Shown: in pieces, positions 1,647 through 21,400 of the stretch | How positions within the stretch are numbered: the stretch's first letter is position 1 | Layout: every line of letters starts with the position of its first letter | Origin: Phycisphaerae bacterium | Lineage (GTDB): Bacteria > Planctomycetota > Phycisphaerae > SM23-33 | Direction of reading: 5' to 3' | Assembly (NCBI GenBank): GCA_021108335.1 | Contig: JAIORC010000021.1 | Span: forward strand, 1-22,240 | DNA length: 22,240 nt | Position numbers and translations under genes: made by a program | Notes under the pieces: model-generated | Database searches by the model: none | What the model saw: the letters and a program-made list of their open reading frames with translations, nothing else | Told to the model about the DNA's origin: nothing

Positions 1647-4118
1647 ATGATTAATCAAAATTTAGCAGGAACTCAAAAAATGACTAGCAAAGCACCCGCT
1701 ATGGGCAGCGTTTTTTTATCGAGTCTGATTCTGTTGGCGATTCCCTCCGTGTCCATGAGCGCCGGGCCGAAGGCCGACAAACCGGCTGCCTCAAATCGCA
1801 TCAATACCATTAAAACTTTTGATCTGATGATTCCGAGGGCATTGGCTGCCCAGCAAATGGATCCGAAGAAACCGGCTTACGGCTCCATGCCGATTAAAAG
1901 GGAAAGTCAGTTCTTCATCCACGAGGCGATATACGGCCTGGCGTGGAGATACAATCACGACCTGACGGCGGAGCTGGGATACAAGGATCCCTGGTACCGT
2001 AACCCCAAACTGCTGAAAAGCGCCATTGCCATGGGCGAATATATCATTTCCCGACAGAGACAGAGGGGCGGATGGGGGTGGACGAGGGGATACGTCGAAA
2101 ACGCGTTTATCGGGCGAACGCTGGCCAAGGCCTACGTGCAGCTCGAACCGTATCTCGATGATACCGTGAGAGATCGCAAATGGCCGACGCGGAAAAGCAA
2201 ATTCAGCGGAAATGTCGGCGACAATGACGATTTCAGGGGCAACTTGACTGGGCATATCTGGCTGGCGCCGCCAAGGAGGTGGTCGGCCATCGCCAAAGAC
2301 GGGAAGACCGATTACCGTACGCCTGCTGCCAAGTCAATGTCCTATTTTTATTACATGAACCGTGGCGGGAATAAATATGACAAGGACTCCGACGGGATAA
2401 TCGACGCGCCTTTCAAGTTGGCTATCCGATACAAAGACACGGGCGCGAAAGTGCAGATCAAAATGCTCCGCGGCGGCAAGTGGCAGCTGTTGGGAACGCT
2501 GGAATCCACCGGCGACAACAAGTGGAAAATTTTCACCTGCGATATTTCCAATATCCCGGTAAAAATGGAAAGATTCGATATGGCCGCCCATGTCCGCCAG
2601 GACAAGTCCACGCCAATCGATTCCATAACCATTACCCCGCCGATCCAGCCGAAGCCCAAAGCCGACCCGGACCGGCTGCTTACACAGAAAGAGTATTGGA
2701 AAAAATCGCTGGTAACAGCCGCCGAGGCTTATTGGGGAATGCCCCTGGGGCAGAACTGGTTCGTTCAGAATCAGTTCCTGGTGGCTAAGCATTTTCTATT
2801 GGAAATGTATCATATAACGGGGGAGAAGCGATACCTTGATTGCGTGCTGGCGGCCCTGAACAAGTATACTTTCCGCTATCCCTATACCCAGGACGGATTG
2901 CAGGGCGAGTGGAACAACTCCATCCACGGAGCCACGAAGCGAGGGGTGAAAAAAATCGGTTACGACCCCAATTACGCTTTTACTTCCGAGTCCGCCCTGG
3001 CGCTTATCTACAATCTCCTGCCCGAGAAACTTGCGGCGGCTGAGCGAAAGAAAATCAGGGAGATAATGGCTAAGCATTTCGACACGCTGCAATACCTGAC
3101 CATGCCGCGGGAGAATAACTATTATCACCAAGCCGGCTTCGGGTGTCGGGGCAACGCGAGAAAGTACAATTTCTGGCAAGTGCCTCTCAACAATGCCGGC
3201 ACACATTCCGATTTTCTGCTCGCGCCGTTCGTTTTCGCACAACACTCACCGGTCGCCAAAAAGTGGGCTGCGATAATCTGCGAGGATTTCAACACTCCCT
3301 CGCTGCCGTACGGCCAATCGTGGGGGCGGGGCAAAAACGGCGGCCCGACAGGTTACAGCCTCGCCTGGTCGGCACACGAGACGCACCAGTTCATCGATTG
3401 TTACGAGTTCTGGAAAAAATATTCTTCGGATTACGTGCTCGTAAACGACCGCAAGGAAGGATACCTCAAGAATCTATCCGAGACGAAGATCGTGGCTGTC
3501 AAGACGGGCGGCTATATCGTCAACCTTTCCTATGGCCCGGCAACTCCAAGCGGCGGCGTGATTGCCGACATGTACGACCTGGCCAAAAAGAGCCACCAGT
3601 TCAGCGGGCACTCTCGCAGGCTCCAAGGCCTGAACTGCATCGTATACGAGCAGGACGGAAAGACGGCAGCGAATAATTACGACATCGAGGCCAAGTGCAA
3701 GGTACGGAGCGACAAAGCCCCCTACAAAATACAAATCTCCGGAACCTTGCGGCATAGAAGAAGCCAGAAAACTGTTCCGATCAACTACACGACAACCTAT
3801 TGCTTCAAAGACGACGCCATCGAGATAACGAATAAACTGGAAATCATCAAGCCGGTAAAAGGCAAACTATACGTAATCTACACGCCCATACAGGCCGACA
3901 ACGCCCCGGTAACATCCTATAAAAAAATAATTTATGATTGGTGCATAATAAGACATGGAAAACACTCCGCCAAACGGCAAGAAGTCGGAAAGGCAAAGGC
4001 CGCAAAGGCCGGCTGGGGAAAAGTGGATGTGATAAAAATGTTCGAACAATCCGCCGCAGGCAAAACATCGCTGACTCAAAAGTACGAAATACGGAAGCTC
4101 GGAGCACGGGCAAAATAA
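1647..4118 (+). CDS. Secreted 823-aa protein with an N-terminal signal peptide, family unassigned. It may be a carbohydrate-active enzyme of alpha/alpha-toroid type, but this is speculative.
   Basis: ATG at 1647 lies 4 nt after the upstream stop. The N-terminus MTSKAPAMGSVFLSSLILLAIPSVSMSAGPK has a hydrophobic h-region followed by A-x-A-like cleavage context. It is one long uninterrupted ORF. It is rich in W/Y/aromatic motifs (GGWGWTRGY, WFVQNQF, NNYYHQAGFG) that recur in glycan-binding folds. I recognise no family signature with certainty. Confidence 0.8.
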   Translation: MINQNLAGTQKMTSKAPAMGSVFLSSLILLAIPSVSMSAGPKADKPAASNRINTIKTFDLMIPRALAAQQMDPKKPAYGSMPIKRESQFFIHEAIYGLAWRYNHDLTAELGYKDPWYRNPKLLKSAIAMGEYIISRQRQRGGWGWTRGYVENAFIGRTLAKAYVQLEPYLDDTVRDRKWPTRKSKFSGNVGDNDDFRGNLTGHIWLAPPRRWSAIAKDGKTDYRTPAAKSMSYFYYMNRGGNKYDKDSDGIIDAPFKLAIRYKDTGAKVQIKMLRGGKWQLLGTLESTGDNKWKIFTCDISNIPVKMERFDMAAHVRQDKSTPIDSITITPPIQPKPKADPDRLLTQKEYWKKSLVTAAEAYWGMPLGQNWFVQNQFLVAKHFLLEMYHITGEKRYLDCVLAALNKYTFRYPYTQDGLQGEWNNSIHGATKRGVKKIGYDPNYAFTSESALALIYNLLPEKLAAAERKKIREIMAKHFDTLQYLTMPRENNYYHQAGFGCRGNARKYNFWQVPLNNAGTHSDFLLAPFVFAQHSPVAKKWAAIICEDFNTPSLPYGQSWGRGKNGGPTGYSLAWSAHETHQFIDCYEFWKKYSSDYVLVNDRKEGYLKNLSETKIVAVKTGGYIVNLSYGPATPSGGVIADMYDLAKKSHQFSGHSRRLQGLNCIVYEQDGKTAANNYDIEAKCKVRSDKAPYKIQISGTLRHRRSQKTVPINYTTTYCFKDDAIEITNKLEIIKPVKGKLYVIYTPIQADNAPVTSYKKIIYDWCIIRHGKHSAKRQEVGKAKAAKAGWGKVDVIKMFEQSAAGKTSLTQKYEIRKLGARAK

Positions 4119-4218
4119 TTCGATACAAACAATTTCAGACAGTTTCTACAAATTGCCCTGGTACTCCGTCCCAGAGACAATAATGGGTGCCCCCCAGGGG
4201 GCGGTAAAAAAACGCGTC

Positions 4219-4254
4219 GGGTGCCGTGGCGGGAAGCGAAGCTTTCAGCCACGA
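4219..4254 (-). repeat. REP-like 36-nt core repeat, copy A1 in inverted orientation.
   Basis: It is the reverse complement of the consensus TCGTGGCTGAAAGCTTCGCTTCCCGCCACGGCACCC and identical to copy A2. Confidence 0.7.
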
Positions 4255-4292
4255 AAGAGAGACACACCATGGCAGATGGTATGTTTGGGTGG

Positions 4293-4320
4293 CATGGTCC
4301 CCTGGGGACCATGTGTTTTT
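4293..4320 (+). terminator. Candidate intrinsic terminator: 10-bp GC-rich stem followed by a T tract.
   Basis: catggtcccc-t-ggggaccatg is followed by tgttttt. It lies ~175 nt downstream of the stop of the 823-aa gene and inside the repeat element. Confidence 0.35.
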
Positions 4321-4544
4321 CGTCCCGCGAACCAGGTGCGAGGGTGGCACAGGTTTGCAACCTGTGCCGCGGTGGCCTGGGAAGGCCACCGCGCTAGGGT
4401 ACAAAGTGAGGCCATGAGGGATGGCGTAGAAATTGCGAATCGATCTTTCATGGCTACCCCGCAAAAAACGCGGGGTTTCCATGCCACCCGACATCGTGGG
4501 AAATTGTCGGGTGCCCCCCAAGGGGCTTTCTCGCAATAGTTACG

Positions 4545-4580
4545 TCGTGGCTGAAAGCTTCGCTTCCCGCCACGGCACCC
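4545..4580 (+). repeat. REP-like 36-nt core repeat, copy A2.
   Basis: tcgtggctgaaagcttcgcttcccgccacggcaccc. Its ends CGTGGC...GCCACG are themselves inverted, which is the palindromic character of REP elements. Confidence 0.7.
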
Positions 4581-4600
4581 ATTATTTTTTACGGGACAGA

Positions 4601-5875
4601 TTACCAGGAAGCCGCTACAAATTGCTCCAGCTCAGTTACCAGGCGGCTGGCGTGGTCGGCCAGAAGTTCCAGGCCTCCACGTTTGGGGCGGAAAGCGTTA
4701 TAGAAAAGAAATGCGGATTCGACCTCGTAGCCGCCCTCGTCATACGCCGAGGCTGTGGGCACATACCCGACTACGCCATTGGCCAAACCTACCGTGTAAA
4801 CTTTTTGCCACGTACTCGCGCGAACTATCTCCGTAAAAGTGGAAAAGATTTCCGCGTTGACACCCAGCAATACAACACCGCCAATCGCCAGGGCGAATAA
4901 TTCGATGTCTACATAATCGGCACCGTTGTTTTGCACGTACTCCGTCATCGACTCGCGCCAGGTCTCAACCGCGAGGCGATAATTTTCGCCCCAATCCGGA
5001 TCGTTGGCAAAGGAGAGGTATTGATCCGCATGGCTATTGATCTGTTCGACACTCCAGACATCCAGGGGCAGCGGAACGGTTTTTGTCAAGACTACCGGCG
5101 ACGCATTTTTTGCCGGCGCGCCTGTCGGTGCCTGTAGCAGTTTGTCTATAACGGACTCCGCCAATTGCCGGCTCCAATCCTTCATCTGCTCGAAATCGAC
5201 GCCGACTGTCGGCGGATTTATATTGCCGCACGCGCCGACGCACACCAGCGCCATCGGTTTACCGGGCAATTGTTCAGACAGAGCAATTGCGGCTTGCCCC
5301 GGGTAATCGGCGCTGGTCTGGTAGTCCTTCATGCAGACCGCGTGCATGGCATAATTAAGCACGACCGCTTTGAACGTATCATCAGTTCGCCGCCATCCAA
5401 TCGCCCCGACGCGCGGATCTGCATGGGCCGAAGCCCCCCGCCGAACTATTGCCAATTCATACAGGCCCTCGACGGTTACTGGCGTGCAGTTTTCGGTATT
5501 CGCCAGGGCATCGGCGGCAGCGGCTTGCATCCACTGTTTTAACTGCTCGACGTAGCCGGCATCGTATCGGCCACACCCGGTCAGGTGAACCACCACCGGG
5601 CCGGAGTGGGTATGCGTAGCCGAAACCATCACACGCGACGACGGCAAGCCCAGTTCCCGCTCGGCCCAGCGCCTGAAGTCATCGACGAAGCTCCGCTCGA
5701 AACCGAGCAAATCCGCGTGAAGCCACAATACGCGTTCGTCGCCTTCTTCCAGGTACAAAGCCCGGCAATACAACGGGTCGTGCACACCCGTCGAGGGGTG
5801 CGTGCGGTCGGCAAAGCCCGTTATGTCGCTGCCCGGCTTGGGTGTAATGTCTATCTGCGACGTTCCAACAATCAT
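4601..5875 (-). CDS. Hydrolase with a neutral/alkaline ceramidase N-terminal-like domain, 424 aa.
   Basis: ATG at 5875 overlaps the upstream TGA as ATGA. The N-terminal block MIVGTSQIDITPKPGSDITGFADR...HDPLYCRALYLEEGDERVLWLHADL resembles the start of the neutral ceramidase family (GxxxxDITP...G, hydroxy/acidic ladder). No signal peptide is visible. The functional call is made from memory of family motifs and has moderate confidence only. Confidence 0.6.
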   Translation of the reverse strand: MIVGTSQIDITPKPGSDITGFADRTHPSTGVHDPLYCRALYLEEGDERVLWLHADLLGFERSFVDDFRRWAERELGLPSSRVMVSATHTHSGPVVVHLTGCGRYDAGYVEQLKQWMQAAAADALANTENCTPVTVEGLYELAIVRRGASAHADPRVGAIGWRRTDDTFKAVVLNYAMHAVCMKDYQTSADYPGQAAIALSEQLPGKPMALVCVGACGNINPPTVGVDFEQMKDWSRQLAESVIDKLLQAPTGAPAKNASPVVLTKTVPLPLDVWSVEQINSHADQYLSFANDPDWGENYRLAVETWRESMTEYVQNNGADYVDIELFALAIGGVVLLGVNAEIFSTFTEIVRASTWQKVYTVGLANGVVGYVPTASAYDEGGYEVESAFLFYNAFRPKRGGLELLADHASRLVTELEQFVAASW

Positions 5876-7137
5876 GCAGTTGCTCCGACAGTTTTTTCCG
5901 CCGGTTCAGCCAGGCTGTCAAGGTTTGCGTGAACCTTTTCGAATGCGCGGATAATATCGTCCATATCCTTTTGCTCGCCAAGCAACAGACTTTGATACAT
6001 CCAGGCGCCCTGTTCGGTGCAAATCGTCTCGCAATTCGGGCAGTTCGTCCTGGTGTAGTCCAAATCTGGATGGTTATTTTTATATCCCGTGTAAGGGCCG
6101 AAGGCAAGATTTGTGAACACCGGTTGGCGGTACAGCGGCAGAACATAGCCCGCGCAGGCGGGAATGCCCTCCGCCTCGATTGCCGCAAGGAATACCTCAC
6201 GCGATACGCCAAGCTCCGCCGGGTTCAGGCGGAACAGGAACAGATGGCAGCCATGCCGGGTGCAATCGTCGCCGCGCTTTTGCAGGTAGATTCCGGACAG
6301 TTTCGACAGCCGCTCGACAAGATATTTCGCGTTCCGGTCGCGCCGCGCAGCCTGCTCGTCAAACCGGTCGAACTGGGCGTTGAGTATCGCGCCCTGGAAC
6401 TCGCCAAGACGATAATTCCCGCTGATAATGTGGTGCTCGTACCACTGGCCGTCTTCCGCGCGGCCACAATTGTGGATAGATCGGCATTCCCCGGCCAGGT
6501 CGTCGTCGCTGGTGATAACGATGCCGCCCTCGCCGCTGGTGAAGTTCTTGCTGGACTGGAACGAGAACGAACCCATGTGCCCGAGCGAGCCGACGCGCCG
6601 GCCTTTATATTCGGCCCCGTGTGCATGGGCGGAGTCCTCGATAACCGTAAGCCCGTGGCGATTGGCGATGTCCATGATCGCGTCCATGTCAGCCGGCAGC
6701 CCGCCGACGTGTACCGGAATTATCGCTTTGGTCCGATCCGTAATCGCCGCCTCGATGGCTTTGGGGTCGATGTTGAATGTCTCCAGGTCGATGTCGACAA
6801 ATACCGGCGTGGCGTTGGCTTCAACGACAGCCGTGGCGGTCGCGAGGAAAGTGTACGGCGGGACGATAACCTCATCGCCGGCTTCGATTCCCGCAGCCAG
6901 CAGCGCGATACGCAGCGAAACCGTGCCGTTTACCACGGCGATACCGTGGGCGGCGTGATGGTAATCCGCGAATCGCCGTTCAAACTTCGCCACTTCATCG
7001 CCACTCAGCCGGCCCCATTGGCCACTGTTCAAAACACGGGACAAGGCGGTTTGCTCTTCCTTACCGAAAATCGGCCAACTCGGAAAAGGTTCCGTCCGTA
7101 CAGGGGAACCGCCGTTAATTGCTAACTCTTCAGACAT
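5872..7137 (-). CDS. DegT/DnrJ/EryC1/StrS-family PLP-dependent aminotransferase, 421 aa.
   Basis: ATG at 7137 is preceded (minus sense) by aaggag 9 nt upstream. It carries the PLP-lysine block SFSFQSSKNFTSGEGG and a typical N-terminal NGG-P motif (AINGGSPVR). It has a 4-nt stop/start overlap with the downstream ceramidase-like gene, which points to an operon. Confidence 0.85.
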   Translation of the reverse strand: MSEELAINGGSPVRTEPFPSWPIFGKEEQTALSRVLNSGQWGRLSGDEVAKFERRFADYHHAAHGIAVVNGTVSLRIALLAAGIEAGDEVIVPPYTFLATATAVVEANATPVFVDIDLETFNIDPKAIEAAITDRTKAIIPVHVGGLPADMDAIMDIANRHGLTVIEDSAHAHGAEYKGRRVGSLGHMGSFSFQSSKNFTSGEGGIVITSDDDLAGECRSIHNCGRAEDGQWYEHHIISGNYRLGEFQGAILNAQFDRFDEQAARRDRNAKYLVERLSKLSGIYLQKRGDDCTRHGCHLFLFRLNPAELGVSREVFLAAIEAEGIPACAGYVLPLYRQPVFTNLAFGPYTGYKNNHPDLDYTRTNCPNCETICTEQGAWMYQSLLLGEQKDMDDIIRAFEKVHANLDSLAEPAEKTVGATA

Positions 7138-10604: not shown

Positions 10605-10672
10605 ATCGTGGCTGTCGCTAACGCTCCCGCCACGGCACCCGCTGAGCGGTAGCAACAGCCACGATGTTTGCC
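10605..10672 (+). repeat. REP-like core copy B (10606-10640), embedded in a larger hairpin formed with a partial inverted copy, acagccacgatgtttg.
   Basis: tcgtggctgtcgctaacgctcccgccacggcaccc matches the consensus. atcgtggctgt at 10605-10615 pairs with acagccacgat at 10655-10665 as an 11-bp stem. It sits between the 156-aa ORF stop (10596) and the ankyrin gene stop (10759). Confidence 0.6.
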
Positions 10673-10758: not shown

Positions 10759-13707
10759 TCAGTGCGTGGCCCCCGCCTTTTTGAGCAGCTTGACGATTTT
10801 CGGGCTGCCACCGCCATAACACGATTTTGCCGCCATTAACGCCGTTCTGCCACTTTTGGTCTTGGCATTTACATCGGCACCTTTGTCCAGCAGTAGTGTG
10901 ACTATTTTCATATTGCCATACCGCGATGCTGCCGCCATTAAGGCTGTACTGCCGTTTTTGTCTTTGGCGTTTACGTCGGCACCCTTGTTAAGCAACAACT
11001 TTACGGTTTTCGTATCTTTTTTCCGCGATGCCGCCACCATCAAAGCCGTTTTGCCCATTTCGGTTTTGGCGTTTACGTCGATACCCTTGCTCAGCAACAA
11101 ATTTACGACTTCTGTCTTGCCTCTCCGCGATGCCGTTATCAAGGCCGTGCCTTTTTTTGTTTTGGCGTTTATGTCGGCACCCTTGTCCAGCAACAGTTTG
11201 ACGATTTTCGTATTGCCTTTCGACGAAGCTGCCATCAAGACCGTGTAGCCACTTTTTGTTTTGGCGTTTACATCAGCACCCTTGTCAAGTAACAGTTTGA
11301 CGATTTTCGTATTGCCTTTTGACGAAGCTGCCATCAAGATCGTGTAGTCAGTTATTGTTTTGGCGTTTATGTCGGCACCCTTGTCAAGTAACAACTTTAC
11401 GACTCCCGTGTTGTTTTTCCACAATGCCACCATCAAGGGTGTATCGCCGTTTGTGTTTCCGACGTTTACGTCGGCACCCCTGTCCAATAACAACTTTACG
11501 GCTTCCATGTTGCTTTTCCGCGATGCCACCATCAAGGCCGTGTTGCCTTTTATGTCTCTGACGTTTACGTCGGCACCCCTGTCCAACAGCAGCTTGACGG
11601 TTTTTCTATGGTCACTCCGCAATGTCGTTATCAAGGCCGTGCCTTTTTGTGTTTTGGTGTTTACGTCGGCACCCTTGTCCAACAACAACTTTACGATTTT
11701 CGTATTGTTTTTCCGCGATGCCGCCATCAAGGCCGTGTAGCCACTTTTGGTTTTGGCATTCACATCTGCACCCTTGTCCAGCAACAATTTTATGATCTCC
11801 GTATTGCCCCTTCCCGATGCCGTTATCAAGGCCGTGCCCTTTTTCGTTGTGGCGTTTATATCGGCGCCTTTGTCCAGCAACAATTTTATGATTTCCGTAT
11901 TGCCCCTTCCCGATGCCGTTATCAAGGCCGTGCCCTTTTTCGTTGTGGCGTTTATATCGGCACCCTTGTCCAGCAACAATTTTATAATTTCCGTATGGTC
12001 CCCTTCCGATGCCATTATCAAGGCCGTGCCCTTTTTTGTTTTGGCGTTTATGTCGGCACCCTTGTTAAGCAACAACTTTACGACTTCCGTATGGCCTCCC
12101 TCCGCAGCCGCCATCAAGGCCATATTGCCGTTTTTGTCTTTGGCTTTTACATCGGCACCCTTGTCCAGCAGCAGTTTGACGGCCTTCGCATGGCCTCCCC
12201 CCGAAGCCTCTATTAAGGGCGTGGTGCCCCAATCAGTTTTGGCGTTTACATCGGCACCTTTGTCCAACAACAGTTTAACGATCTTCGTATGGCCTTTCAG
12301 CGAAGCCGCCATCAAGGCTGCACTTTTGGCTTTTACGTCGGCACCCTTGTCCAACAGCAGTTTGACGGTCTCTACATGGCCTCCCCCCGAAGCCGCCACC
12401 AAGGCTGTACCGCCCCAGCGAGTTTTGGCTTTTGTATCAACACCTTTGTCCAATAACAGCTTTGCGATTTTCGTATGGCCTCCCCTCGACGCATCCATCA
12501 AGGCCGTATAACCACCCTTGGTTTTAGCATTCACATCGGCGCCCTTGCTCAGCAACATTTTTACGAATTCCGTATTGCCTCCCTCCGAAGCTGCCATCAA
12601 AACCGTGTAGCCATTTTTGGTTTTGGCTTTTATATCGGCACCCTTGCCCAGCAGCAACTTTACGGTTTTAGTATTGCCTCTCAGTAATGCTGCCGCCATC
12701 AGGGCGGTGTAGCCCCCGCCATTTTTGGCGTTCACATCAGCGCCATTGTCCAGCAACAGCTTGACGATCTTCGTACGGCCACGTCGTGATGCCGACCACA
12801 AGGCCGTGTAGCCTTTTTTGTCTCTGGCGTTTACTTTGGCACCTTTGTCCAGCAACAACTTGACGATTTCCGCATTGCCTTTCCGCCATGCCACTATCAT
12901 CAAGGCCGTAGAGCCACTTTTGGTTTTGGTGTTCGCATCCGCGCCATTGTCCAGCAACAGTTTGGCGATCTTCGTACGGCCATCCTGCAATGCTTTTATC
13001 AAGACCATTTCTCCGCGTGGGTATCTGGTGTTCGCATCGGCCCCCTTGTCCAATAACAGTTTAACGATCCTTGTATGGCGTTCCCGCAATGCCTCCGTCA
13101 AGGCCCTACTTCCGAATGTTCCGAATGTGTCGGCGTTTACCTTGGCACCTTTGTCCAGCGACAGTTTGACGACTTCCGTATAGCCTCTCCTGGAAGCCCT
13201 CTCCAAAACTGTTTCGTGTCCGTATATGCTTTTGGCGTTTACGTCTGCACCCTTGTCCAGCAACAGTTTGACGATCTCCGTATTGCCTCGCCGTAATGCT
13301 ATCCACAAGATCGTCTCGTCACCTTTGCGTTTGGTATTTGCATCAGCACCTTTGTCCAGCAATAGCTTGACTGTCTTCGCATGGCCTTGCTGCACAGCTT
13401 CTATCAAGGCCGTACAGCCAGATTTGGATTTGGCTTTTGCGTCGGCACCCTTGTCCAGCAACAGCTTGACAATCTTCGCATGGCCTGTCTGCGACGCATT
13501 CATTAGGGCTGTTCTGCCATTTTCGTCTCTGGCGTTCACATCAAGCCCGGTTTGAAGGAGTTTCTTTACTTTTTCCGCATCTCGAGCCCAGATGGCCTGG
13601 CGAAGTTCTTTGGGGTCGGCTGGCTTGTTTATCCAAATGCCCACGCCGCATGCCAGAATCAGCCCCACGACGACGAGTTTGACGATGTTGCTTTTCATTC
13701 GATTCAT
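10759..13707 (-). CDS. Ankyrin-repeat protein of ~983 aa with about 28 ANK repeats and an N-terminal signal-anchor/TM helix.
   Basis: The ORF is continuous and has 33-residue repeats of the form G-TALM-AS--GH--IVKLLLDKGADVNAKTK-. The N-terminus MNRMKSNIVKLVVVGLILACGVGIW is hydrophobic. The likely start is ATG at 13707 with ggag 6 nt upstream. The longer ORF to 13794 lacks an SD. Confidence 0.85.
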   Translation of the reverse strand: MNRMKSNIVKLVVVGLILACGVGIWINKPADPKELRQAIWARDAEKVKKLLQTGLDVNARDENGRTALMNASQTGHAKIVKLLLDKGADAKAKSKSGCTALIEAVQQGHAKTVKLLLDKGADANTKRKGDETILWIALRRGNTEIVKLLLDKGADVNAKSIYGHETVLERASRRGYTEVVKLSLDKGAKVNADTFGTFGSRALTEALRERHTRIVKLLLDKGADANTRYPRGEMVLIKALQDGRTKIAKLLLDNGADANTKTKSGSTALMIVAWRKGNAEIVKLLLDKGAKVNARDKKGYTALWSASRRGRTKIVKLLLDNGADVNAKNGGGYTALMAAALLRGNTKTVKLLLGKGADIKAKTKNGYTVLMAASEGGNTEFVKMLLSKGADVNAKTKGGYTALMDASRGGHTKIAKLLLDKGVDTKAKTRWGGTALVAASGGGHVETVKLLLDKGADVKAKSAALMAASLKGHTKIVKLLLDKGADVNAKTDWGTTPLIEASGGGHAKAVKLLLDKGADVKAKDKNGNMALMAAAEGGHTEVVKLLLNKGADINAKTKKGTALIMASEGDHTEIIKLLLDKGADINATTKKGTALITASGRGNTEIIKLLLDKGADINATTKKGTALITASGRGNTEIIKLLLDKGADVNAKTKSGYTALMAASRKNNTKIVKLLLDKGADVNTKTQKGTALITTLRSDHRKTVKLLLDRGADVNVRDIKGNTALMVASRKSNMEAVKLLLDRGADVNVGNTNGDTPLMVALWKNNTGVVKLLLDKGADINAKTITDYTILMAASSKGNTKIVKLLLDKGADVNAKTKSGYTVLMAASSKGNTKIVKLLLDKGADINAKTKKGTALITASRRGKTEVVNLLLSKGIDVNAKTEMGKTALMVAASRKKDTKTVKLLLNKGADVNAKDKNGSTALMAAASRYGNMKIVTLLLDKGADVNAKTKSGRTALMAAKSCYGGGSPKIVKLLKKAGATH
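11786..12075. repeat. Three near-identical 96-bp tandem repeats inside the ankyrin CDS.
   Basis: 11786-11881 and 11882-11977 differ at ~3 positions. A third, more diverged unit follows. They encode KKGTALITASGRGNTEIIKLLLDKGADINATT twice verbatim (32-aa units). Confidence 0.75.
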
Positions 13708-13847
13708 AATCAACTCCGTAAAAATCGTGAACGTACCAAAGATGTAGGGCCGGTGATTCTGCCGAGGGCAGGCATGCCCTCGTGGTTCACCCATGCGCAG
13801 GCGGAAACACCCACCCCGTCACCGGAGAATTAACTGCTCTTGTAACA

Positions 13848-13882
13848 TCGTGGCAGAAAGCTTCGCTCCCGCCACGGCACCC
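13848..13882 (+). repeat. REP-like core copy C.
   Basis: tcgtggcagaaagcttcgctcccgccacggcaccc. It lies in the 280-bp spacer between the flotillin stop (14076) and the ankyrin start. Confidence 0.65.
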
Positions 13883-13904: not shown

Positions 13905-14029
13905 ATTGCGCGGCGGCCAGGGATGGCCGCCGCGCGATATGCGTCTTATGCTGGGCCGGGTGCCATGCTTCTGCTTGCAGAAGCATGCTGTCTCGCATCC
14001 ATCATGGCGACCCCTGCGGTGTCGCCATG
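13905..14029. other. Cluster of three strong stem-loops in non-coding DNA.
   Basis: 13905-13938 has a 15-bp GC-rich stem gcgcggcggcca/tggccgccgcgc with loop ggga. 13964-13987 is catgcttctg-cttg-cagaagcatg. 14003-14029 is catggcgac-ccctgcggt-gtcgccatg followed by ccatgccacccaa. They could be terminator or attenuator structures for the upstream minus-strand flotillin operon, or part of the repeat element. Confidence 0.4.
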
Positions 14030-14075
14030 CCACCCAATTTGTTATTTTGCTTCGCCGGGCGGCATGCCTGGGAAA

Positions 14076-17929: not shown

Positions 17930-17970
17930 CGGTGCCGTAGTGGGAGCGCAGCGACAGCCACGATGTTTGA
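17930..17970 (-). repeat. REP-like core copy D in inverted orientation, with the adjoining CAGCCACGATGTTTG 15-mer shared with copy B.
   Basis: The reverse complement of 17930-17963 is tcgtggctgtcgctgcgctcccactacggcaccg, which matches copy B apart from ~4 substitutions and indels. It starts 8 nt after the ispE stop. The same spacer contains caaaccatgccacccaaac (18006-18024) and atgccacccagccatgatgtttg (18037-18059). Confidence 0.55.
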
Positions 17971-18224
17971 ACTTCGCGCGGGACGAACAACACATGGCTT
18001 GCAAGCAAACCATGCCACCCAAACTATTAAACTCCGCGCGGCGGTCTTCCCAGGCCGTCGCGTATCACCCACGACCGTAGGGTGGGTGCTCCCGCCCACG
18101 TTGGAACCGGGAAAAACACACGGCTCCCAGGGGATTATGCCACCCAGCCATGATGTTTGCTGGAGAAGAATTTCAAGGTAGGGCTTGACCGGAGCGGCTT
18201 AAATTGCTAAAAGGGTTCCTCCCA

Positions 18225-18298
<74 letters not shown>

Positions 18299-18303
18299 GT
18301 CGC

Positions 18304-18337
18304 AAAAAACGTTCCGGAAATCCCGGGACGTTTTTTA
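18304..18337. terminator. Bidirectional rho-independent terminator.
   Basis: Stem aacgttccgg / ccgggacgtt (10 bp including one G-U) has loop aaatc. It is flanked by aaaaaa on the 5' side and tttttt on the 3' side, so it can terminate the tRNA transcript and the convergent mannosidase transcript. Confidence 0.7.
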
Positions 18338-18464
18338 TGCGCATAAGCTTGGTTAACCAAAGGGGATACGAACCTCTCAGGCTTTGCTCAAGACAGGCCG
18401 AAGCCCGGTTACAGGATTTCCTGAACCGCCCTGAACGGTTTTCAAAATCGCCGCACGTGTGAAA

Positions 18465-21400
18465 TTACTGCAGGCGGAAGGTTTTGATCTCGAAGGGGGT
18501 GTAGCTGAAAGACAGTTTGCCGTTTTCAACTTCAGCCGGGGCTATGGTGTTTTCCAGCAAATCGCATTCGGCTGCCTTGGCTATGGGCGTGCGACAACTC
18601 AGCGAAGCCGTTCCGCGAGTTCCGTAAAGTTCCACGATACGAACAATCAGCCCTTGGCCGTCTTCGGCTTGCTTGACGGCTTCGATTTTAACTTGCGACG
18701 AGTCGAGCGACATCATCGATTCGCCAGCCAATTTGCCGCGACGGCCTGGTAGTACCCGCAACGGGGCGTTGAACTCGTAGGCACGCTCCACAACGCCACC
18801 TTCCCGCCAATCGCCGCAATGCGGCATAATCGCGTATCTGAAGACGTGCTGCCCCTCGTCGCACTGCGGATCGGGGCGAATCGGGCCTTTCAGCAGCGTC
18901 AGCCGCATGACGTTGCCGTGGATGTCATACCCGTATTTCGAGTCGTTAAGGAGGGCTACGCCGTAGTCGCCTTCGGACAGGTCGGCCCACTTATGGCCGC
19001 ACACTTCGAACTTTGCCTGATCCCAGGTGGTGTTCTCGTGAGTCGGCCTTTCGATAGAACCGTAGCTCAAATCGTAGCGGGCCTGCCTGGCGAGTATGCT
19101 CACCGGGAAGGCAACCTTCAGCAACCTGTGCCGCTCCTGCCAATCAACAAATGTCTCAAAATCTACGCGTTTAGCCCCCTGGAAAAGTCGCACTATCTGC
19201 TTCAGGCGGGAATTTGAAAATTCATACTCGAACAGCAACGCGACGGACAGCGGGCCATCTTCCAGAACTTCGACGGAATGCGGCTTGGGGAATTCCCAGC
19301 ATTTATCCTTATAGGATTGGACAATATCCCATGCGTTGTACACGCCGGGCATGTCTTCGAAAAGCTGGAAGGCGTTGGCAGTCTTGCCGGATTCAACGAC
19401 TTCCCGCCCGGTGGTTTTGTCGATGATACTGACGATCCTGCCGGCATCGTCGAAACTCACGCTCAGCAGATCATTTTCCAGCCTGTCGCGCGAAACCGCC
19501 ATTGACGAATTTTCGGTTGCTGCCTGCGGGGTTTTATTATCACCATAGCGGAATTCCGAATATCCCATTGCCGGCACGGCTTGGCAGCGGCAGGCCAGGT
19601 GCTTTTGGCCTTCGATGTCGGTGATAATTTGCGTCGGGCACACATTGCCCTGTGCGTCGATTATGCTGGCGTCTTCGCGGGTTTCGGCGTCGAGTAGAAC
19701 CATGTCCGACCGCGGCCAGGAGAAAGTGTTGATGACCGAAACCGCCGAGTCGTCGGCTGTCTCCAGGAGCGTATCGCCGGCAGCGGAGCATATTTCCTCC
19801 GTGGACGACACGACGTCTTCATAGTCAGCCACGGCGTCAACCGTAACCGCCCCGATATGCGAACCGGGGATAATGTCGTGGAATTGATTGAGGAGGATAT
19901 TTTTCCACGCCTGCTCCAGCGGCTCTGCCGGGTAATCGCCGCCGGCGAGACCCGCGAAAGAGGCTAATATCTCGGCGTCCCTGACAAGGAACTCGCATTG
20001 CCGGTTGTATTTCTTCAGGATGGCCTTGGAGGTGTATGTGCCCCTGTGCATCTCCAGATAAAGCTCGCCGTCCCACGTCTTAAGGGCTGCGGGATCGCGG
20101 AATGCTTTATGCAAATAGTCGCCCGCGGTCGTTATTCGCGTTTGCGGCAGGGACGGGAAATGTTTTACCCGCGAGGCGATTTCCAGCATATCTTCCGTCG
20201 CGCCGCTGCCGCCGTCGCCATAACCATAAATATGCATGGATTCCCCGCAGGTATCCTTCTCGACGAATCTGTCCCAATTGTCGTTCAACTGGTCAGGGGC
20301 CATCCAGCTGATAAAGTGGACCGGCGGAACACACGTGAATACTTCCGAGCCGTCGATTCCCCGCCAGATAAACGTGTTATGCGGAAATTCGTTCGTGTCA
20401 TTCCACGTTGACATCTTATTGGAAATAAAATACTTGATCCCGCTCTTGGCCAATATTTGGGGCAATATCCAACTGTTGCCGAAATTATCGGGGACCCAGC
20501 AGGTGTCGATATCGAGGCCGAACTCTTTGCTAAAGAATTTCTTGCCGATAAGGCACTGGCGAACCATGGATTCTCCCGACGGCACGTTGCCGTCCGGCTC
20601 GACATACATTCCGCCGACGATTTCCCAGCGGCCTTCCTTTATACGCTGTTTGACCTGCTCGTAAACTTCCGGGTAATGCTTTTTGAGCTTCTCGTACAGC
20701 CAGGACTGACTGTGCGAGTAGGTAAATTCCGGGAACTGATCCATCAGGTCGAGCTGAATAACGCACGTGCGTACGTTCTTGCGAATCGCGTGATGCTTCT
20801 GCCAGAAATAGGCTATGTCCAGATGCGAATGGGCTACCAGTGCAAGCCGGCCCAGCGAGCTGGAATCCTCATTGTACACTTTCGCCTGGAGATACTCGAT
20901 AGCCGCCCGCACGGTGCTTGCCAGAGCATTGCGATCCGTCTCATGACGATCAAAAATATTCAGGGCCTTATCCAAATGGTACTTCAGCGAATCGACGATG
21001 TTTTCGTCGGTGCTATCGCCGCTGAGTACCTGGTAAATCACGAGGCAGTCGTAGTAAAGCCGCTCGATTTCGGGGTCGATGCTTTCCAGCACCGGCGAAG
21101 GGAATTTCTGAATACACCCGCGTATCGCGCTGACTTCACTGCGCTCATCGTCAGGCCGCGATCGAACATACGATTCAAGCTCAATGTTAAATTCGTCGCC
21201 GCCGACTGAGGATTCGGACAGCATGATTCGCCCGCGGTTCGGGTCTAGGCCGCCGACCATCTTGCCATTGACGGATACCATACTCTCGGCGGTGCTCGTA
21301 AACTTGAGATACGTTCGTTGCCCGGCGAACTTGTCCGGCATTTTGAGCGAGGTTTTGAAAAAGGCGGTACCGTCCGGCCCGCCCCACAACTCGCCGGGCA

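Follow-up and report, generated by a model that had tools for sequence, protein, structure and literature searches.

REPs, or repetitive extragenic palindromic sequences, are stem-loops of 20-40 bp, one end of which carries an unpaired GTAG tag (Di Nocera et al. 2013, PMC3733652), a tag that degenerates to GYAG, GYRG, GTRG, GTMG and GTGG, with GTGG carried by most GTAG-20 units of Opitutus terrae, a member of the Planctomycetes-Verrucomicrobia-Chlamydiae (PVC) group (PMC3733652). REPs are present in Planctomycetes, with several families per genome, and are arranged predominantly in head-to-head dimers with the tags outside, but also in tail-to-tail dimers and clusters (PMC3733652); the spacers of dimers usually measure 20-100 bp, DNA may be inserted between the partners, and REP termini often supply stop codons (PMC3733652). 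The tag is the guide sequence for the REP-associated tyrosine transposase (RAYT, TnpA-REP), which it helps to select the cleavage site, and cleavage is redirected when GTAG becomes GTGG (PMC8266576). Tagged REPs are extragenic, with tens to hundreds of copies in a genome, and the gene of the cognate RAYT typically has REPs at its flanks. Doublets of REPs in inverted orientation, as a rule spaced by 71 or 110 bp, are known as REPINs (Bertels & Rainey 2011, PMC3116915). Investigation of a 22,240-bp contig of an uncultured Phycisphaerae metagenome-assembled genome (MAG; JAIORC010000021.1, here the window, meaning the whole stretch analysed) revealed a block of hairpins in the 482-bp spacer separating two convergent genes, which is probably a mosaic of the type of REPs and bacterial interspersed mosaic elements (BIMEs), with two copies of a 36-nt core forming a head-to-head dimer.

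The block is framed by a perfect 36-nt inverted repeat (4219-4254 and 4545-4580) with 290 nt between the arms, and none of 100 shuffles of the window gave any match. The original prediction, made from the letters alone, had described perfect 36-bp inverted arms around 290 bp, and the arms are indeed exact reverse complements; the interior hairpins that it listed (4293-4313 followed by a T tract, 4346-4368, 4368-4393, and 4457-4462 with 4470-4475) and two direct copies of GGGTGCCCCCCARGGGGC (4185-4202 and 4509-4526) are also present. The outward continuation of the symmetry that it proposed is real, but its pairing of cggtaaaaaa with ttttttacgg requires a 2-nt shift and lies partly inside a 34-nt insertion. 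The outer arms are better paired as 4157-4184 with 4581-4608 (identity 22/28), and they join the cores once the 34-nt left-arm insertion at 4185-4218, bounded by repeated GGGTGCC, is set aside. Where no target-site duplication had been seen, an exact 11-bp direct repeat, CTACAAATTGC, was found at 4146-4156 and 4615-4625, its first copy abutting the left arm and its second lying 6 nt past the right arm. Because of the corrected outer arms and this flanking repeat, the feature extends over about 4146-4625 rather than 4198-4600, and at its right end it takes in the stop codon of the 424-aa gene (4601-4603) together with the two codons before it. The features of the block are as follows.

4146-4156, + strand: copy 1 of the direct repeat CTACAAATTGC, exact; elsewhere in the window, L002 and L003 only at 4615-4625.
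4157-4184, + strand: left leader CCTGGTACTCCGTCCCAGAGACAATAAT, the outer inverted-repeat arm, 22/28 identical to the reverse complement of 4581-4608.
4185-4218, + strand: 34-nt left-arm insertion, a tagged mini-hairpin (tag GGGT, arms GCCCCC and GGGGGC around ca), then an A-run.
4219-4254, + strand: core A1, with tag GGGTGC, stem CGTGGC (4225-4230) and GCCACG (4248-4253), plus an inner stem.
4287-4320, + strand: tagged hairpin of the GGGTGG-CATGG family, then TGTTTTTCG; resembles an intrinsic terminator for the + strand gene.
4342-4368, + strand: tagged hairpin (tag GGGT, arms GGCACAGGTT and AACCTGTGCC around tgc).
4368-4393, no strand assigned: untagged GC-rich hairpin (arms CGCGGTGGCCT and AGGCCACCGCG around ggga), with relatives at window 13908-13935 and 18036-18062.
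4411-4454, + strand: module with ATGGCGTAGAAATTGCGAAT between GCCATG and CATGGC; relatives at L002 44 and 104 (- strand), equivalent to L080 ~11320-11400.
4449-4489, - strand: tagged hairpin of the GGGTGG-CATGG family, whose 35-nt body (4449-4483) is swapped for 11 nt in strain L001.
4509-4526, + strand: tagged mini-hairpin, hairpin X of unit U, with three substitutions relative to strain L001.
4527-4544, - strand: spacer conserved in unit U (reverse complement CGTAACTATTGCGAGAAA), with an identical copy at L080 11848 and a similar one at L080 21020.
4545-4580, - strand: core A2, the exact reverse complement of A1.
4581-4608, - strand: right leader, the outer arm, in which the 424-aa gene ends with its last two codons and stop codon (4601-4603).
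4615-4625, + strand: copy 2 of the direct repeat CTACAAATTGC, inside the C-terminal tail (QFV) of the 424-aa gene.

Regarding the cores, 10 copies were detected in an 81.3-kb sample made up of the window and stretches of contigs NODE_18 and NODE_113 of assembly ERZ26872896, from the same organism; copy and family counts in 81 kb refer to this sample, and positions prefixed with an L number are those of sequences other than the window. The starting point for extending the sample was a single metagenome match from the Joint Genome Institute (JGI; L003), which was assigned to the same MAG. A1 and A2 are the sole inverted pair. The other eight cores have no inverted core partner; two of them (L080 11709 and 11883) have the same orientation and a distance of 174 nt, and the others stand alone, including three in the window.

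10606-10641, - strand: solo core C, its 5' half reused in a hairpin with 22-bp arms at 10605-10665.
13848-13882, - strand: solo core B, 94 % identical to A1/A2, followed by three hairpins, two of them tagged, up to 14035.
17930-17964, + strand: degenerate core D, 8 nt after the stop codon of a GHMP-kinase gene, with tagged hairpins following up to 18146.

The hairpin at 10605-10665 (22-bp arms, z = -6.2) shares the 5' half of core C, allowing this core two mutually exclusive folds. Cores C and B, in direct orientation, flank the gene at 10759-13794 that encodes a 1011-aa protein of about 27 ankyrin repeats (99-nt period), and homology between the two flanks is limited to the cores.

A leader, ATYATTTTTTnnGGGAYGGAGTACsAG, is attached to four of the 10 cores (obtained from an alignment of all cores and flanking sequence, followed by one of the four best), and the counterpart of the left leader of the block precedes the cores at L080 21078 and 11908. 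A larger unit of about 120 nt, here called U, consists of a GGGTGC-tagged hairpin X, the spacer yTTTCtCGCAatAGTTACr, the core and the leader, and was found at three loci (window 4509-4608, L080 ~11797-11905 and L080 ~20964-21085) with a hairpin X that varies among them. The right half of the block is accordingly a complete copy of U, and the left arm is a leader-and-core end broken by insertion of the mini-hairpin. The two arms differ in their conservation: the cores are identical at 36/36 positions and the leaders at 22/28, and at the rate of the leader an identity of 36/36 would have a probability of about 2e-4 by our arithmetic. This uneven identity agrees better with separate homogenisation of REP units than with the two ends of a single old insertion. 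Two unrelated genes, the 424-aa ceramidase-like gene and a POTRA/Omp85 bamA-like gene, have their stop codons (4601-4603 and L080 11908-11910, respectively) inside the outer end of the leader, so that both reading frames appear to be terminated by the repeat.

With a strict pattern, the core had no match in 185,579 GTDB species genomes or in IMG/VR, and one match in the JGI metagenomes, a solo copy in the same organism; by these searches the core family is lineage-restricted. A looser 19-mer gave 69 loci in GC-rich genomes, all of them matches by chance, and the 3' half of the core was absent from every one. A protein-database comparison with peptides from all six frames of the core variants, aimed at spurious open reading frames (ORFs) over other copies, gave nothing at E <= 10. 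A cluster member, P0122, turned out to be unrelated.

The interior hairpins belong to other repeat families, which were found elsewhere in other orders and orientations. The interior modules find their counterparts at other loci independently of one another: in a short-word BLAST comparison of the block with the rest of the sample 25 matches were obtained, against 4-15 with shuffled queries, and a further search gave four matches where none was expected. Relatives of the hairpin at 4287-4320 are present at window 18020(-) and 18146(-), L080 14714(-) and L081 2450(+); the arrangement GTTTGGGTGGCATGG-hairpin-CCATGTGTTTTTCGTCCCGCG (4283-4329) has further copies at window 17977-18024, window 18111-18146 and L003 4176-4216, the GC hairpin at 4374-4394 is repeated at 18036-18056, and the ATGGCGTAGAAATTG module is seen again at L002 30-54. 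The modules are thus reshuffled from place to place, and a second copy of the complete block of about 400 bp was not detected in 81 kb. Such mosaics fill at least five other long spacers of this genome, and the same mosaic lacking the inverted core pair was seen at L080 11261-11907, 14236-14884 and 20902-21260 and at L081 13701-14030. One of these, L080 14236-14884, is a 649-bp divergent spacer between bamA-like and CTP-synthase genes with four tagged hairpins on one strand, so the repeats are not limited to 3' flanks. A CRISPR-like array was considered for the tandem units of tag, hairpin and ATGGCGTATAAATTG at L002 1-160 and was rejected, the variable parts being palindromic and drawn from dispersed families. 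ORFs within the block gave no meaningful Pfam match, only a spurious one to Harakiri at E = 0.012. For the one cluster that was checked, contigs of two other assemblies, L004 and L005 (ERZ26872896, Logan SRR15668623), end at window 13980 and 14009, within the cluster 13958-14035, which is consistent with repeats breaking short-read assemblies.

What the families have in common is the tag. Nearly every unit starts with an unpaired GGGT[AG][GC] directly 5' of the stem; this motif precedes eight of the 30 perfect non-coding hairpins in the first 38 kb, where about 0.6 % would be expected for each (P about 6e-12), and its density is 4.8 times higher outside than inside genes. The 37 instances of tag plus hairpin in 81 kb, about 32 of them intergenic, belong to separate sub-families: the core (CGTGGC...GCCACG), GGGTGG-CATGG, of which three bodies recur, GGGTGC-CATGCTTCTGCttGCAGAAGCATG, the GCCCCC mini-hairpins, GGGTGGGTGCttGCACCCA and the canonical GGGTAG-CCGGGTC. 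The core is a two-tier hairpin of 36 nt and the other units have stems of 5-13 bp, while the GTGG and GTAG tags are carried by the GGGTGG and GGGTAG families. Across the block the units follow the order + + + +. - + -, with no regular alternation. Tagged hairpins in convergent spacers are mostly sense to the nearer upstream gene, and divergent spacers also hold them; head-to-head heterodimers were found at 4509/4580, 13958/14035 and L080 20972/21054, together with five multi-unit clusters. At L003 3985-4008 (also L081 ~2676) and 4128-4150 there are inverted GGGTAG-tagged GCCGGGTC hairpins about 120 nt apart with another hairpin between them, a pair that, in this same genome, has the textbook form of a GTAG REP dimer. 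A perfect 34-nt palindrome at L080 11541-11574, GGGTGGCATGGCTTGCAAGCAAGCCATGCCACCC, is tagged on both strands.

Compared with GTAG REPs, among them the GTGG-tagged GTAG-20 family of Opitutus terrae, the repeats share the short stem-loops tagged at the 5' side, coexisting families, dimers with tags outward, clusters, invaded dimers and stop codons at gene ends, and both the size of the stem-loops and their organisation in dimers and clusters are those of REPs. They differ in the tag itself, GGGT[AG][GC], in that the most abundant family here, the core, is tagged by GTGC, in the 290-nt spacing of the dimer, in a leader of about 28 nt outside the tag and in the lack of a RAYT in 81 kb. Regarding REPINs, the layout of U (hairpin X, an 18-nt conserved spacer and the core) is that of inverted units and was found at no fewer than three loci (>= 3); however, U is heterodimeric with a variable partner, A1 and A2 are 326 nt apart from start to start, and most sampled cores lie outside doublets, with one inverted homodimer among 10, whereas doublets predominate in REPIN populations. 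Inverted pairs of one family on a short spacer, with doublets outnumbering singlets, were thus not seen in the sample. Enterobacterial BIMEs (PMC2817692, PMC3333891) resemble the block as extragenic mosaics with REPs in both orientations and conserved motifs between them (here the spacer of U and the ATGGCGTAnAAATTG module), while the block lacks regular alternation and is irregularly spaced.

Miniature inverted-repeat transposable elements (MITEs) of the Correia and NEMIS type are a few hundred bp long, intergenic and foldable as RNA, with terminal inverted repeats. A MITE is also expected to have a target-site duplication directly at both ends, multiple copies that share ends and interior, and a related autonomous insertion sequence with the same terminal repeats. 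The block resembles these elements in its length, terminal inverted repeats, intergenic site, RNA folding and candidate flanking direct repeat; unlike them, the complete unit is single-copy in the data searched, its interior is modular and its arms are mostly one-ended elsewhere. Terminal inverted repeats are present (36/36 plus 22/28), but multiple copies of a whole element were not detected in 81 kb.

The ERZ26872896 assembly of a sister strain (L001) is 99.9 % identical and overlaps 14.5 kb of the window; it differs by nine substitutions, four of which, together with the sole length change, fall within the 482-bp spacer (by our estimate P about 1e-4 for four of nine substitutions in 3.3 % of the length). 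The length change replaces the 35-nt hairpin body 4449-4483 by an 11-nt body in L001, the exchange being bounded precisely by the tag GGGTGG and AAAGATCG. In hairpin X the differences are G4513A, A4521G and C4526T, of which G4513A and C4526T form a compensatory change from a G.C to an A.T pair. The strain differences are thus concentrated in hairpins, which points to exchangeable repeat units rather than a conserved RNA. At 6241-6253, in a DegT-family aminotransferase gene, four synonymous substitutions within 13 nt separate the MAG contig from the sister strain; outside the spacer the other approximately 5.6 kb beside this patch are identical, and it may be a recombination patch.

Of the explanations that the original prediction had kept in play, the BIME or REP alternative is best supported, on the dispersed cores, the modular interior and the tag, and the block is best read as a REP cluster, a head-to-head core homodimer with an unusually long, invaded spacer. 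Each unit is a short hairpin behind an unpaired GGGT[AG][GC], the same tag being used by several hairpin families. The apparent terminal inverted repeats (TIRs) are two copies of the core family with leaders of about 28 nt and tags outward, the 290-nt gap is filled by units of other families, and the right half (4509-4608) is a complete REPIN-like heterodimer, U. By analogy with GTAG REPs, a RAYT-type HUH Y1 transposase that reads tag and hairpin may propagate and maintain the units in the form of folded single strands of DNA, and where transcribed the units could act as hairpins of the 3' untranslated region (3'-UTR) that terminate or protect both convergent mRNAs.

Several points weigh against this reading. 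The tag of the core is GTGC, which is outside the degenerate GTAG forms described in PMC3733652, and only the GGGTGG and GGGTAG families match the published tag. With 290 nt between them, the two cores are much farther apart than the partners of REP dimers, usually at 20-100 bp (PMC3733652), and those of REPINs, at 71 or 110 bp (PMC3116915). No RAYT/Y1 (Y1_Tnp) transposase gene was detected among the genes of the 81 kb. HUH-type transposition leaves no target duplication and would not account for the exact 11-bp direct repeat on either side of the block. The role of the hairpins as terminators or stabilisers is a prediction from sequence, and the genome-wide core frequency of about 1 per 8 kb is an extrapolation, as are the hundreds of repeats that the 10 cores and about 32 intergenic tagged hairpins of the sample would imply.

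The direct repeat speaks for a different history, in which a MITE-like composite, a block of about 458 bp (4157-4614) with leader and core as TIRs of about 62 nt, entered the 424-aa gene whole, at its extreme 3' end, with duplication of the 11-bp target CTACAAATTGC. The exact repeat (4146-4156 and 4615-4625) has a rough chance probability of 1e-4 to 1e-3 by our arithmetic, and its sequence was found nowhere else in the window, L002 or L003. Deletion of 4157-4625 leaves an intact ORF ending in QFVETV*, 17 nt from the stop of the convergent gene; the junction before a one-piece insertion would read ...CAGTTTCTACAAATTGCTCCAGC..., without the intervening block, the artificial empty site being ...CAGACAGTTTCTACAAATTGCTCCAGCTCAG..., and replacement of the tail (by AASW*) would be tolerable because homologues have short, unconserved tails at that point. 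However, the whole block or a two-ended version of it has no second copy, the other eight cores and the two other copies of leader plus core being one-ended; the modules of the interior are dispersed independently, conservation of the arms is uneven (36/36 against 22/28), the right end of the block is offset by 6 nt from the direct repeat, and CTACAAATTGC is itself quasi-palindromic with a 9/11 relative within the block at 4426-4436. No transposase was found in the available sequence, and to our knowledge none with such ends has been described. The terminal inverted repeats and the flanking 11-bp repeat thus speak for the MITE that was first proposed, but independent occurrence of the cores, which the proposal itself had named as decisive against it, is what the 10 dispersed cores show, eight of them having no inverted partner. 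A one-piece insertion is accordingly regarded as unlikely, as is its counterpart in terms of movement, a composite with two inverted REP-type ends moved in a cut-and-paste-like manner with an 11-bp duplication, giving the gene a new C-terminal tail and stop codon. In a related and likewise unlikely reading, prompted by the exact swap of 35 nt for 11 nt, the GGGTRS tags would be fixed docking sites for the exchange of hairpin bodies, and it is on this tag-anchored swap and the 11-bp direct repeat that a small residual chance of something unusual rests. Origin of the block by local inverted duplication of one end of leader and core through template switching, with a diverged interior and cores kept identical by gene conversion, is considerably less credible. 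The symmetry does run inward beyond the cores, a GGGTGGCATGG hairpin standing in mirror positions of both halves, but the interior parts in mirror positions are not the same family members and their bodies are unrelated, and another convergent spacer, without any duplicated core, also has a mirrored arrangement, produced by sense-oriented tags.

Two further explanations place the function of the hairpins in RNA. A host-selected array of 3'-UTR hairpins, acting as terminators or barriers to RNA decay and spread by recombination or gene conversion without a dedicated transposase, would agree with the match of 4292-4314 and the following GTTTTTCG to the consensus for terminators on the upstream gene's strand, with the T-rich tails behind several family members, with the compensatory change from G.C to A.T that keeps a stem between strains, and with the sense orientation of most tags to the nearer upstream gene in the cassette spacer and in L080 11261-11907. 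Divergent, promoter-side spacers are nevertheless filled with the same units (L080 14236-14884 and 17900-18146), the count of terminator-like sequences is not above that in shuffles (2 versus 1.0 +/- 1.0), and a conserved unpaired tag with near-identical dispersed copies is typical of mobile REPs, not of independently evolved terminators; such an array is slightly less probable even than one-piece insertion. At 18300-18345 in the window, directly after tRNA-Ala(GGC) at 18226-18298, there is a symmetric hairpin flanked by an A-run and a T-run, aaaaaacgttccggaaatcccgggacgtttttt, which resembles a bidirectional terminator. A long structured non-coding RNA gene closed by a 36-bp terminal helix, the other possibility raised at the outset, fared worst and is highly improbable. 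Its predicted fold is very stable (-267.7 kcal/mol, z = -12.9 relative to shuffles), one pair is compensatory between strains and a weak resemblance to RsmW was detected (26.4 bits, E = 0.022), but the low folding energy follows trivially from the inverted repeats. With Rfam 15 only tRNA-Ala (18226-18298) reaches the gathering score over the window, and at relaxed E-value the region 4050-4700 gives RsmW at 26.4 bits, where 52 are required, and flg-Rhizobiales at 19 bits. No sigma-70-like promoter was found in the block, every substructure is a dispersed repeat that exists outside the context of the block, and the replacement of a whole 35-nt hairpin by 11 nt in a 99.9 %-identical strain is hard to reconcile with an RNA gene. 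A sponge of the CsrB/Rsm type was also considered and rejected, GGA motifs being at chance level (seven in about 450 nt by our own count).

At NCBI the MAG is represented by MCD4823159.1 and other proteins, one of the locus tags being K8S55_01005; the 823-aa, SpoIIE-type and ankyrin proteins were not found on record. Regarding the neighbouring genes, the + strand neighbour ending at 4118 is an orphan gene encoding an 823-aa protein with no match in Pfam, NCBIfam or PDB, and the - strand neighbour is the 424-aa ceramidase-like gene with its stop codon at 4601-4603, the nearest homologues of which are only about 54 % identical. The contigs of these homologues (L075-L077, 67-68 % GC) lack synteny and tagged hairpins. 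The orphan protein is encoded by tandem paralogous genes (2-1642 and 1647-4118) with 87-94 % nucleotide identity over long stretches, and the sister-strain contig stops at 2450, the start of a high-identity repeated stretch in the second paralogue (1647-4118).

Thus, a dense, multi-family set of tagged REP-type repeats is added to the Phycisphaerae (Planctomycetota), a class for which none appear to be catalogued, and what looks like a cassette with perfect TIRs can arise from two REP-type units placed face to face. The repeat clusters hold most of the differences between near-identical strains and appear to supply the stop codon of at least two genes. The understanding of REP biology would be unchanged unless the 11-bp flanking repeat is a true target duplication; a composite move or docking at tags, if true, would be a kind of mobilisation undescribed for RAYT/REP systems, in which target duplications do not arise. 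Should there be a cognate Y1 transposase, the tags GGGTGC and GGGTGG would add to the guide sequences known so far.

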